Virus record (IMG/VR): IMGVR_UViG_3300025030_000039
Location: 252,878 to 316,877 of that record
DNA length: 64,000 nucleotides
Strand: one strand, 5' to 3'
From: a virus
Under the pieces are notes generated by a model that did no database searches, was not told where the DNA came from, and saw only the letters and a list, made by a program, of their open reading frames with translations. Numbering within the stretch: position 1 is the stretch's first letter; each line of letters starts with the position of its first letter. Of this stretch, positions 9,480-10,145 are shown one piece after another. The translations under genes and the position numbers were made by a program.

Positions 9480-9701
9480 ATTTACTTTTATCTCCGGACC
9501 GGAAATTTTTCAATACAACACCTAATCGACACCTTCTTTTCTACGACCCGAAAAAAATCTTACTTCCCCACCGTAGGAGGTATTCTCACAGTTCTAACAT
9601 GGCCCATCCATACATGCATTATTATATATACATACATATATTTAGTATTGATAGTATTATTTTTGATTAGATTAAAAATTTTTGATTCAATCTAATTTAT
9701 C

Positions 9702-9850
9702 TGTACCTCTAGTAAGTTTGTACCTCTAGTAAAGTTTGTACCTCTAGTAAAGTTTGTACCTCTAGTAAAGTTTGTACCTCTAGTAAAGTTTGTACCTCTA
9801 GTAAAGTTTGTACCTCTAGTAAAGTTTGTACCTCTAGTAAAGTTTGTACC
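9702..9850. repeat. iteron-like tandem array: 8 copies of the 18-bp unit TGTACCTCTAGTAAAGTT
   Basis: Perfect head-to-tail 18-bp repeats (first unit 17 bp), no spacers. Confidence 0.9.
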
Positions 9851-10145
9851 ATGACTCTTCATTGATCCTTCGATTAAAAATTTTTGTAATTGCGCTTATA
9901 TAGCAGGCTTTTTCTCATAGGGTTATGATGAGTTAAAGTGTTGTAGAAATTGAGCGTCGCGCTACGCGACTCGATTGTAAAGATGGTTAAGAGAGTGAAA
10001 GGATTAGTCGTGAAAGGGTTAGATGGTCTTGAAGTGTTAAGAGTGTATATATGATGGTATAGTATGTATAGAGTATAGAGCGATGTTTGAAAAGATAATA
10101 GGTTATAATCGTAGGGTGTAATCACTGATAATGAACATAGTGACC

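Follow-up and report, generated by a model that had tools for sequence, protein, structure and literature searches.

Does a compact array of direct repeats at a sharp switch in strand composition mark a site at which a huge phage begins to replicate its DNA? For the huge (>400 kb) Mahaphage-type phages, a group known from metagenomes only, we are aware of no mapped replication origin. The locus considered here lies in a 64,000-nt stretch of viral DNA, hereafter the window (positions 252,878 to 316,877 of IMG/VR record IMGVR_UViG_3300025030_000039), and an earlier note, made from the letters alone, had proposed it as a candidate bidirectional replication origin. The local architecture, the composition flip and the array itself give that proposal partial support, whereas its reading as a genome-wide skew-switch origin does not stand. 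The site is not the single bidirectional origin of this genome in the whole-genome skew-switch sense, and as a replication-origin candidate the array is reasonable but unproven.

Genome and assembly

The window spans the circular join of LR756500.1 (GWB1_PHAGE_COMPLETE_CIR-CU-CL_25_34), the 462,018-bp genome of a Rifle groundwater phage whose host, by CRISPR spacer, belongs to the Bacteroidetes. The genome is markedly A+T-rich (76% A+T, 24% GC) and assembles as a closed circle. The end and start of the GenBank record correspond to window positions 9851 and 9852, directly at the array edge; with the genome circularised, the cut at this point is a choice of the curator or the assembler. The genome curators shifted the start into this intergenic region, and their methods speak of a suspected origin 'in some cases'. 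The join of the record ends is real, because in an independent 252,614-bp ENA contig (k127_201761) the array, again of 8.3 copies, lies in the interior between both of its flanks, which also rules out the array as an artefact of joined ends.

A k141 contig from another assembly ends within the array. At 149 nt the array is close to the read length of this data set, which we take to be about 150 nt, so that 8.3 copies may understate the true number or represent one of several variants. That copy number was recovered in two assemblies, both apparently from the same or closely related Rifle samples (one of them from run SRR1658462). Under genetic code 11, ORFs of at least 150 aa cover 76% of the genome, and the minus-strand block is 90-98% covered; an alternative genetic code is therefore not needed to account for the many small ORFs.

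The 18-bp array

The array occupies positions 9702-9850 of the plus strand and consists of 8.3 head-to-tail copies of TGTACCTCTAGTAAAGTT, of which seven are perfect, the first is one A short (17 nt) and the last is partial. TRF returned a period of 18, 8.3 copies and 99% matches over this interval, in agreement with the eight head-to-tail copies given in the earlier note. Eight unit matches are observed where 0.03 would be expected by chance. The unit is asymmetric, and the array is therefore directional. With at least three direct repeats in the same orientation and a size within the 17-22 bp range typical of iterons, the array resembles iterons. The seven full units are identical at all positions, which is more than binding would require and is what recent slippage yields, and successive units, 18 bp apart, do not fall in helical phase.

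Throughout the 462-kb genome, the 18-bp unit is confined to the array, which is also the sole near-perfect noncoding tandem array. No partial iteron copies were found elsewhere in the genome, such as in a promoter, which rules out operator-like partial iterons outside the array. A coding repeat can be dismissed as well: four of the six frames are open, but those on the plus strand have no start codon, and the minus-strand ORFs over the array (56 and 47 aa) comprise repeat units only, with the first unit shifting the frame. Nor does the array represent a structured RNA, as it is unstructured upon folding (z +0.26).

The surrounding noncoding island

The array is situated within the largest ORF-free stretch of the genome, an island of 1,478 nt at positions 9431-10908; the next-largest gap free of ORFs on both strands measures 754 nt. 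The island is bordered by a bidirectional terminator on one side and by the next promoter motif on the other, and no promoter motif of known class was found inside it or on its minus strand. The intrinsic terminator (9445-9477), detected by a terminator scan on either strand and thus predicted to be bidirectional, combines a 13-bp stem with one run of A and one of T; it closes the upstream gene (8834-9430) and forms the left bound of the island. It is followed by a C-rich and relatively GC-rich plus-strand segment (9480-9617) that contains CGGACCGG at 9495-9502 and GGCCCATCCA-TACATGCAT at 9601-9619. Base counts per 50 nt across 9480-9640 (C 16, 13 and 9 vs G 4, 7 and 4) bear out the C-rich left segment described beside the array, and from about 9900 onward the counts are G 13-17 vs C 1-8.

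Between the C-rich segment and the array lies an A+T-rich stretch (9618-9701) that abuts the first unit and contains a weak palindrome at 9662-9695 (81% complementary). This stretch is a possible unwinding element. Its duplex instability, at the 77-82nd percentile of 80-bp segments in this genome, is unexceptional, so that an exceptional A+T-rich unwinding element was not found. Taken over its full length, the island has a more stable duplex than the genome has on average. The 'AT-rich hairpin' of the earlier note likewise reduces to an 8-bp A/T stem with a DNA fold z of +0.26. Two plus-strand direct repeats of TT(A/C)GATTAAAAATTTTTG, at 9667-9684 and 9869-9886, bracket the array at a distance of 202 nt with 94% identity.

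The remainder of the island (9852-10908) is G-rich and C-poor on the plus strand, with a GC skew of approximately +0.5 and a GC content of 0.33-0.36, and includes a GC-rich hairpin at about 9955-9970. TATAGAG boxes occur in this part at 10067, 10074 and 10727 and, inverted, at 10213 and 10220. The same part contains a 47-nt inverted repeat, the arms of which (10145-10191 and 10521-10567) are 98% complementary and separated by 329 nt; inspection by eye shows a separate hairpin with a 9-bp stem in either arm. Direct repeats accompany it, at 10110-10151 and 10453-10494, along with TAAGGTGATAGAACGAAGG at 10188 and 10493. The strong RNA fold of this region (z -7.6) is driven by the inverted repeat, within the right arm of which (10521-10567) a Logan contig breaks. 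A 22-bp tandem of 2.3 copies (10783-10833, plus strand) precedes TGTTATTATATTTA (10870-10883), a class-specific promoter-like motif ahead of the first gene to the right (ATG at 10909).

Minus-strand RNA folds of the C-rich parts (z -2.8 and -0.9) derive mostly from terminators. A known structured RNA family or tRNA was rejected: no Rfam match reached the gathering thresholds in the window, positions 9400-11000 gave only sub-threshold, terminator-like matches, no family passed the gathering or E-value thresholds in 9852-10908, and no tRNA was found. Host DnaA boxes are common, though not universal, in iteron origins; no match to TTATCCACA with at most one mismatch occurs in 9431-10908.

Strand composition across the genome and at the array

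At the scale of the whole genome, skew follows the genes. A uniform negative skew that tracks gene strand extends over 85% of the genome (394 kb negative, 68 kb positive). The cumulative GC-skew minimum is located at record position 408,823, in a divergent intergenic region between minus- and plus-strand genes, and the maximum at record positions 3.5-15 kb (from 3,562), which correspond to 13.4-24.9 kb of the window. Codon-position skews in 20-kb bins gave no change point that would implicate the array, which argues against a replication signal hidden beneath the transcription signal. In the cumulative plot of the whole genome, by which the earlier note had itself proposed that its claim be judged, the array is a local minimum only. 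The global minimum and the two opposite replichores of a bidirectional, skew-defined origin are thus not found here, and the swap of leading and lagging strands that the note had invoked fails for the genome as a whole, since the skew extremes lie elsewhere and track gene strand. Whole-genome GC skew reports gene orientation in this phage and is therefore unfit for naive origin calling.

The local signal is of another kind. The C-to-G flip at the array ranks second among 4,620 positions genome-wide (0.72, approximately 4.8 SD), and the local minimum of cumulative G-C lies at 9871. The flip comprises about 1.3 kb of C excess leftward and 3.5 kb of G excess rightward. The neighboring genes on both sides are all on the plus strand, so the polarity change is indeed independent of gene orientation, as had been claimed and as a skew-defined origin would have it. 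The other strong flips of the genome occur at islands of opposite-strand genes, whereas those of the two hubs described here are unexplained by gene strand. The reported extent of the two flanks is a different matter. Cumulative G-C is flat from position 1 to about 8400, and the left C excess is confined to about 8600-9870 and amounts to roughly 100 bases, rather than the 9.5 kb of A/C-rich sequence that had been described. The G/T-rich right flank holds for about 3.5 kb, to 13413, beyond which it does not; there polarity reverses at about 13-15 kb, and further reversals at 21.06 kb and 25.2 kb bring the number to three within 15 kb. Rightward of the array, the AT skew of the bulk sequence is still positive, and T is enriched at third codon positions only.

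Alternating composition domains

The flip at the array is flanked by domains of extreme synonymous-site composition, all among plus-strand genes. To its left, a C domain (7353-9430) of ORFan genes has a third-position GC skew that strengthens from -0.4 to -0.82 toward the array; read outward, the bias decays with distance through -0.82, -0.63, -0.41, -0.38, -0.41 and -0.07. To its right, a G domain (10909-12493) contains five ORFan genes with third-position GC skews of +0.69 to +0.94, and third positions there are about 1% C and 18-22% G. A second C domain (15074-20900), about 55% coding, is C-rich and G-poor in its genes and long spacers alike, with third-position GC skews of -0.33 to -0.87 and spacers of 4-9% G and 17-25% C. 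A second G domain (21557-24928), with third-position GC skews of +0.69 to +1.0, reaches the end of the plus-strand gene block. The two LRR genes of this last domain share their bias with LRR paralogs elsewhere in the genome, so that for this pair the bias is a property of the family and not of the position. Alternating and extremely skewed domains among same-strand genes at this scale occur only here in the 462 kb.

The genes of the first G domain have C3 0.01, G3 0.18 and T3 0.44, and those of the second C domain C3 0.21, G3 0.04 and T3 0.29. Because third codon positions, four-fold sites and spacers all carry the bias, and because it takes the form of G+T vs A+C, it points to a mutational signature of single-strand exposure rather than to codon selection. 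At synonymous sites, this signature looks like local single-strand exposure of a deamination-like type. Should the domains be mutational footprints of such exposure, they would mark where the DNA opens; should they not be, they are a compositional peculiarity of the early gene block that calls for a separate explanation. The right G domain ends near a terminator at 12476-12493, an observation that fits a transcription-linked cause equally well.

A second noncoding hub

The strongest C-to-G flip of the genome (rank 1) is situated at another noncoding region, at 20901-21556, which repeats the layout of the first: a terminator (20916-20944), then a C-rich and GC-rich part, an A+T-rich part and a G-rich part. 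The C-rich part contains GGCCCACCCA..TACATGCAT at 20950-20975, the A+T-rich part an 11-bp repeat of 3.6 copies (21114-21152), and the G-rich part two copies each of GGCGGACCGGTTTG (21262, 21472) and ATTATATAGAGTGTT (21394, 21442) together with TATAGAG boxes. Some of these motifs are rare. All three genomic occurrences of CGGACCGG (9495, 21264 and 21474) fall in the two hubs, as do both plus-strand occurrences of GGCCCAYCCA (9601 and 20950), each of which is followed by TACATGCAT; clusters of TATAGAG are common to both. A global alignment of the two flip regions was unconvincing as a sign of sequence homology, and only the short rare motifs and the layout are held in common. On these shared features the two noncoding hubs, the second of which is newly recognised here, appear to be related.

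Search for an initiator

Iteron origins call for a cognate initiator, a Rep protein usually with winged-helix domains, whose gene adjoins or overlaps the repeats. Pfam searches of the 51 neighboring ORFs (window 1-25000) returned no member of the Rep, helicase-loader, primase, Par or terminase families, and a PHROGs search of the ten flanking ORFs returned no Rep family. The sole DNA-binding candidate is the ORF at 13203-13892, 3.4 kb from the array, which has wHTH matches below the cut-off; the single-sequence AF2 model of this putative tandem-wHTH protein (pLDDT 38) is unusable. Pfam and simple motif regexes applied to nine long ORFs recognised only a tail sheath, a HATPase_c (GHKL-type ATPase) domain and a glycosyltransferase, and the replication module was not located among them. 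Two flanking ORFs are ORFans with no homologue among 5.8 billion proteins. A novel initiator is possible.

Comparison with known systems

The organisation of iteron origins into Rep-bound repeats and a DUE has been reviewed (PMC4980987). Like these origins, the present locus combines same-orientation direct repeats in the 17-22 bp class with an adjacent A+T-rich stretch in noncoding DNA. It is unlike them in that no recognisable Rep gene lies beside or overlaps the array, DnaA boxes are absent, the units are exact copies of one another and recur every 18 bp instead of every ~22 bp, the A+T-rich part is unexceptional for this genome, and the replicon is not a plasmid but the 462-kb genome of a lytic-type myovirus. 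The classical examples are the R6K gamma origin, with seven contiguous 22-bp iterons, RK2 oriV, P1 oriR and the lambda origin.

Comparable in the order of its elements is RSF1010/IncQ oriV, which replicates by strand displacement and possesses 3.5 iterons of 20 bp, GC-rich and AT-rich segments, and a large inverted repeat bearing ssiA and ssiB. Both loci present an A+T-rich segment and iterons followed by a large inverted repeat with hairpin arms on opposite strands, and displacement of the RSF1010 type would leave a single strand exposed to either side, in keeping with the sign of the local asymmetry. The phage locus differs in having no RepA, RepB or RepC homologues and no sequence similarity to RSF1010, and 329 nt separate the arms of its inverted repeat, which lies some 300 nt from the array.

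Among large myoviruses, T4 has an origin with short iterons and the repEA and repEB genes (oriE) and R-loop origins (oriF and oriG). The resemblance lies in several localised early origins within early or middle regions, at least one of them with direct repeats, from which one strand is displaced; no homologous proteins or promoter types were identified here, and, as far as we know, T4 origins lack kilobase-scale skew domains. For those domains the nearest parallel is vertebrate mitochondrial DNA, in which the H strand is G+T-rich owing to deamination while single-stranded. The C-to-T and A-to-G polarity of one strand at synonymous and noncoding sites and the strength of the bias, with a third-position GC skew of up to about 0.9, are alike in the two, whereas the asymmetry of the phage takes the form of sign-alternating domains of 2-6 kb in a 462-kb dsDNA genome. 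Finally, contiguous, near-identical, head-to-tail short repeats in intergenic DNA are also found in parC and tubC arrays and in bacterial and phage VNTRs, although no partition operon lies near the array.

Proposed local replication initiation and its alternatives

The explanation that we favor, tentatively and as a possibility short of even probability, is that the array binds protein in the manner of iterons and lies in one of two related zones where replication starts locally. A replication initiation site is the leading hypothesis, on grounds other than those of the earlier note and without an identified initiator. We infer that the array serves as the iteron-like module of a 1.5-kb noncoding control region (9431-10908), one of two hubs in the early, ORFan-rich plus-strand block of this Bacteroidetes phage. 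A phage-encoded and so far unrecognisable DNA-binding protein would coat the eight directional 18-bp sites, the adjoining A+T-rich stretch would open, and synthesis would start outward on both strands, with the hairpin-bearing 47-nt arms perhaps priming on opposite strands. Over the first few kb, synthesis would be uncoupled, of the strand-displacement or R-loop type, such that the displaced single strand is the plus strand rightward and the minus strand leftward. Over evolution, C-to-T and A-to-G deamination could then have enriched the plus strand in G+T on the right and in A+C on the left, whatever the orientation of the genes. The sign of the asymmetry, with A+C left and G+T right, is as expected on either side of an initiation site. 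The hypothesis provides a concrete and testable origin candidate, made up of the 1.5-kb region, the 18-bp site and the second related hub.

A more specific form of the proposal, which must be considered rather unlikely, holds that both hubs, one of them with the eight 18-bp copies, are paralogous strand-displacement or R-loop initiation zones that have left mitochondrial-style deamination footprints of 2-6 kb on each side. If true, giant phages of this kind would begin to replicate at several clustered origins, with synthesis uncoupled for a prolonged phase, and kilobase-scale polarity flips at synonymous sites would provide a sequence-only locator of initiation zones in uncultivated members.

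Against local initiation stands the reading of the array as a neutral minisatellite, a functionless 18-bp motif expanded by slippage in a long spacer, in which the flip is a property of the gene modules on either side and meets the array only because the two share an intergenic gap. The identity of seven units at all 18 positions next to a degenerate edge unit has the look of recent tandem expansion, the break of the k141 assembly of another data set within the array could reflect length heterogeneity, and the 18-bp motif comes without partial copies elsewhere, an identified cognate protein or conservation in any collection. The still stronger flip of the second hub, which has no comparable array, also favors such a VNTR. 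This reading appears unlikely all the same, with no second such array in 462 kb. The one that exists occupies the largest noncoding island, where the local skew minimum is within 20 nt of it, 18-nt direct repeats bracket it and a complex system of inverted and direct repeats adjoins it; a relative, moreover, has a similar perfect array of eight copies near its own skew switch. The flip may alternatively be the work of transcription, with the hubs as strong divergent or regulatory promoter regions, the array as operator or enhancer-like factor sites, and the skew domains as footprints of heavy transcription (non-template deamination or R-loops), antisense across the C domains included. The domain borders are intergenic, the right G domain ends at the intrinsic terminator at 12476-12493, and the block has its own promoter class; the coding strand is G-rich at third positions genome-wide (median +0.27), of which the G domains would be an exaggeration, and LRR paralogs are equally biased wherever located. 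The C domains, however, have plus-strand genes and promoter motifs yet show the opposite bias, leftward transcripts would meet the terminator at 9445-9477 after about 200 nt, short of gene 8834-9430 with its strongest C bias, and the known-class promoter motif is absent from the island and its minus strand. A transcriptional cause is thus also judged improbable.

Far less likely are two readings in which the array serves the handling of the genome rather than its initiation. Short repeat arrays adjoin T7 terminal repeats, as they do other phage termini and pac sites, and a pac-like site for the terminase small subunit, or a position beside DNA ends or a terminal repeat, might account for the array, with the asymmetry arising from end-initiated strand displacement or end processing. 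Displacement from two ends that are joined in a circular map could likewise give A+C left and G+T right, and an ORFan-rich block in which every gene has its own promoter and terminator is reminiscent of the terminal repeats of SPO1 and T5, which hold host-takeover modules. The genome nonetheless assembles as a closed circle, the independent 252-kb contig runs through the array, no terminase was recognised among the 51 neighboring ORFs, and a single pair of ends does not explain two same-sign flips 11.4 kb apart; a packaging or end element is accordingly very unlikely. Type II and III centromeres (R1 and pSK41 parC, tubC) are contiguous head-to-tail repeats of 7-20 bp, coated by protein as a helical filament, and on this model a ParR-, omega- or TubR-like adaptor could occupy the array in a plasmid-prophage or pseudolysogenic state. 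An out-of-phase period would be acceptable for such an element. Centromeres, however, normally lie immediately upstream of their own par operon, which would be expected directly downstream of the array; no ParA, ParM, TubZ or RHH protein was found among the 51 ORFs of window 1-25000, so that the pairing of an adaptor with a ParA, ParM or TubZ NTPase next to the array is absent there, and the composition flip would go unexplained. A partition centromere is the least credible of these alternatives.

Related loci

Searches for loci related to the proposed initiation zone yielded nothing usable. In blastn and tblastn searches, the region and its flanking ORFs matched the phage itself only. By its 18-mer or 24-mer, no such array is present in IMG/VR, JGI metagenomes or GTDB genomes, and the latter two gave lone chance matches only. 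Among four relatives, no alternating domains occur near the record junctions, and in three of the four examined there is no array near the record start. A link between GGCCCAYCCA and ATCTGCCCACC, the array unit of the distant relative LR756502.1, was rejected as too weak, with only a 7-mer in common. That array is itself perfect, consists of 8.1 copies of an 11-bp unit, and lies 2.1 kb from the divergent-gene skew switch of its genome.

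Genome context of the array

Sequence identity between the window and LR756500.1 ("uncultured phage", 462,018 bp) is 100%, with record position 1 at window 9852 and the last base of the record at window 9851. Thus, the window spans the circular join, and the array closes the deposited sequence. The genome, named GWB1_PHAGE_COMPLETE_CIR-CU-CL_25_34 (Al-Shayeb et al. 2020; PMC7162821, supplementary file 4), originates from groundwater at Rifle; it has been circularised, curated and closed, and a Bacteroidetes genome carries a CRISPR spacer against the phage (PMC7162821). Tail-sheath similarity (31–39% identity) places it alongside Lak phages and the largest of the "Mahaphage" genomes. 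The join at 9851/9852 is real, because a 252,614-bp contig assembled with MEGAHIT (ENA ERZ909588, run SRR1658462) holds the array internally with both flanks, likewise in 8.3 copies. A k141 contig of another assembly ends within the array, its last 141-mer being 9711–9851; the array, 149 nt long, is thus a point where assemblies break, and could be heterogeneous in copy number. Contigs of 252,614 bp and 166,612 bp, from two independent assemblies, both stop ~166.5 kb right of the array, which suggests another assembly-breaking repeat at record ~166.5 kb, outside the window, at a position deduced from the two contig sizes. The sole difference between the window and LR756500.1 is 30 extra bases at 1959–1989, in the right arm of a palindrome with a perfect 35-bp stem (1907–1989). 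These bases are also missing from an ENA contig, and reflect either a polymorphism or an assembly deletion induced by the hairpin.

Architecture of the first hub

The tandem array proposed in the earlier note was recovered by TRF at 9702–9850 (period 18, 8.3 copies, 99% matches), with eight unit matches against 0.03 expected by chance. Its unit has no other occurrence in the whole genome, and no other near-perfect noncoding tandem array was found in the 462 kb. The surrounding noncoding island (9431–10908; 1,478 nt), here termed the first hub, has, on the gene-bearing strand, no ORF of 50 aa or more that starts with ATG. No gap of this kind in the genome is larger (the next that is ORF-free on both strands measures 754 nt), and the island has a GC content of 0.32 vs 0.243 for the genome. 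A bidirectional terminator (9445–9477, both strands) forms its left end and is followed by a C-rich segment (9480–9640), an A+T-rich stretch and the array, which is bracketed by direct repeats TT(A/C)GATTAAAAATTTTTG. The C-rich segment, the G-rich sequence from ~9900 and the plus-strand orientation of the neighbouring genes are all as the earlier note had them. Its "AT-rich hairpin" fared less well: an 8-bp A/T stem exists, but it is without thermodynamic significance, and the stretch is unremarkable for a genome of 76% A+T.

The G-rich kilobase right of the array contains a 47-nt inverted repeat (arms 10145–10191 and 10521–10567, 98% complementary, 329 nt between), accompanied by flanking direct repeats; each arm has, by eye, its own internal 9-bp hairpin. 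A k=31 Logan contig breaks within this inverted repeat, for which a priming signal, an invertible segment and a structured-RNA stem are all conceivable. Between it and the motif TGTTATTATATTTA at 10870, the last element of the island, lies a 22-bp tandem repeat of 2.3 copies. Searches for an Rfam family, a tRNA or a DnaA box at the array locus found none.

Whole-genome skew

It had been proposed that leading and lagging strands swap at the array. Skew computed on the complete LR756500.1 record contradicts this, its global minimum lying at record 408,823, in a divergent intergenic region, and its maximum at record 3.5–15 kb. Between record 15 kb and 408.8 kb, skew is negative throughout (~−0.2) and 80–98% of ORFs are on the minus strand; over the 68 kb from 408.8 kb via the record end to 15 kb it is weakly positive and the ORFs are on the plus strand. 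Since its sign follows ORF strand in both blocks, the genome-scale skew reflects the orientation of the genes, or replication that runs the same way. Relative to the coding strand, third-position skew is positive in both blocks, and across the whole genome it has no change point that points to the array. In four relatives, skew around the record junction tracks ORF strand as well. The whole-genome skew refutes the genome-scale argument for an origin.

Alternating local skew domains

The flip at the array is nevertheless the second largest C-to-G switch of 4,620 genome positions (0.72, ~4.8 SD, 1.5-kb arms); the largest lies at window ~21,100. The plus strand had been described as A/C-rich for 9.5 kb to the left of the array and G/T-rich to its right. 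The change in composition is genuine, but it reaches less far than described: cumulative G−C is flat from 1 to ~8400 and declines by ~100, as a C excess, only between 8600 and 9871. To the right, it climbs ~400 to 13,413, but then reverses to a minimum at 21,059 before rising again to 25,180.

A per-gene analysis makes this flip one part of a wider pattern across same-strand genes. Third-position GC skew falls from −0.4 to −0.82 nearer the array (genes 7353–9430), is +0.69 to +0.94 in genes 10909–12449, near zero or mixed in 12915–15073, −0.33 to −0.87 in 15494–20900, and +0.69 to +1.0 in 21452/21557–24928. Across 7353–24928, then, A+C-rich and G+T-rich domains alternate in genes and spacers, with third-position skew from −0.87 to +1.0; domains of such size occur nowhere else in the 462-kb genome. 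Spacers take the sign of their own domain (e.g. 18441–18766, G 4%, C 21%), four-fold sites do likewise, and A and T shift complementarily, the G domains being enriched in G+T and the C domains in A+C. Genome-wide, all ORFs with a coding-strand third-position GC skew below −0.5 and adequate G3+C3 counts lie in the two C domains, the sole exception (ORF 421566–421961) having small counts. Only two blocks in the genome exceed +0.3 over at least 3 kb, both in the window. A family of LRR proteins with 69-bp coding repeats is encoded at window 23297–24928 and at record ~181 kb, 199 kb, 332 kb and 411 kb. At any genome location, its paralogs use G almost exclusively among G/C-ending codons (third-position skew +0.77 to +0.97), so that the two genes closing the second G domain are no positional evidence.

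Such polarity would be expected from C-to-U and A-to-hypoxanthine deamination of single-stranded DNA, in which case the exposed strand would be the plus strand in G domains and the minus strand in C domains. Deamination while single-stranded is the classical explanation of strand asymmetry in mtDNA. Of the results, these alternating domains and their paired hubs are the more unusual.

The second hub and shared motifs

The genome's largest C-to-G flip coincides with a 656-nt ORF-free gap (20901–21556), the second hub. Its layout is that of the first: a terminator, a C-rich and GC-rich part, an A+T-rich part carrying a short tandem repeat, and a G-rich part in which direct repeats are dispersed (GGCGGACCGGTTTG and ATTATATAGAGTGTT, two copies each). 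All three genome copies of CGGACCGG fall in the two hubs, as do both plus-strand copies of GGCCCAYCCA, each with TACATGCAT no more than 17 nt downstream. TATAGAG boxes cluster in both hubs as well, the G-rich halves accounting for 8 of the 23 plus-strand copies in the genome: three in the first hub, four within the second and one at 21712, 156 nt past the edge of the latter. The hubs share more 9–11-mers than a block-shuffle null, an excess that low complexity may inflate. Global alignment of the hubs gave no convincing homology. From these motifs we conclude that putative related cis-elements mark both flips, the array itself belonging to the first alone.

Promoter-like motif and neighbouring genes

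TGTTATTATATTTA recurs ~35 nt 5′ of small plus-strand ORFs at window 52–20356 (e.g. 8790, 10870, 13147, 15442 and 17066) and is absent from the island's own interior. With one mismatch allowed, 29 of its 37 plus-strand matches genome-wide fall in the 68-kb plus-strand block; it is therefore probably a class-specific, perhaps early, promoter. The 51 ORFs of this block in the window gave only LRR, zinc-ribbon and sub-threshold winged-helix matches, and those flanking the array are ORFans. Near the array, a 229-aa ORFan of two tandem segments (13203–13892) is the one DNA-binding candidate, with weak winged-helix matches (DUF6088, PadR, FUR, MCM_C), all under cut-off; its single-sequence AF2 model (pLDDT 38) is unusable.

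Interpretation of the hubs and the array

Each hub looks like the starting point of a process that acts outward to both sides. Bidirectional initiation of DNA synthesis that displaces a strand would produce the sign found (A+C on the left, G+T on the right), and so would strong divergent transcription; both are candidates. A transcriptional hub would fit the stop of the right-hand G domain at a terminator, and a G bias that exaggerates the normal coding-strand bias of the genome. However, the bidirectional terminator should halt leftward transcripts and the strongest C bias sits beyond it, and the genes and predicted promoters of the C domains are on the plus strand; we rate this explanation unlikely. 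Both observations speak for replication, along with the near-zero-skew zone between the hubs, where converging synthesis would meet, and the iteron-like repeats and hairpin-bearing inverted repeats at the locus.

Counted against any function of the array are its perfectly identical units, the failure to find a partner protein or conservation, and a second hub with no array comparable to 18 bp × 8.3. It might be a neutral minisatellite, a reading we regard as rather unlikely. The record ends at the array by choice of a human or assembler, probably not at a physical end. A packaging or genome-end element is quite improbable and a partition centromere highly improbable; a small share of the probability falls to no listed reading. 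We infer, tentatively, that the array could be an iteron-like module within a local zone of replication initiation; this reading ranks first, as a possible rather than a probable role. No other single locus of this phage is as good a candidate for a cis-acting replication element.

Comparison with known systems

The closest working likeness of the locus is the iteron origin, in which repeats bound by Rep accompany a DUE (PMC4980987). In contrast to such origins, no Rep gene or DnaA boxes were found at the locus, the A+T-rich stretch is ordinary, and the 18-bp period is out of helical phase. The locus ranks as a look-alike candidate, not to be filed as a family member. The architecture of RSF1010 oriV also resembles it, with iteron-like repeats and hairpin-bearing inverted repeats. 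Among relatives, the distant 642-kb LR756502.1 (L044) carries a perfect 11-bp × 8.1 array of ATCTGCCCACC at L044 22867–22955, in a 280-nt intergenic gap 2.1 kb from the record start, which is a switch of divergent genes and GC skew. No similar array was found near the record start in three other relatives, and the comparative support is thus anecdotal.

The adjoining minus-strand block

A minus-strand gene block (25758–55934) adjoins the early region. It encodes a major-vault-protein-shoulder/SPFH protein (30755–33238), an AAA ATPase, an RNA ligase beside an HD/kinase protein (34352–36555), a PARP-like protein (39448–40722), an NMNAT-like protein (44701–45861) and a NAPRTase (54747–55934), which together look like a set for RNA repair and NAD salvage/ADP-ribosylation. 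Long imperfect tandem duplications also occur among the minus-strand genes, at 41509–42018 (281 nt × 1.8) and 62037–62480 (217 nt × 2.0).
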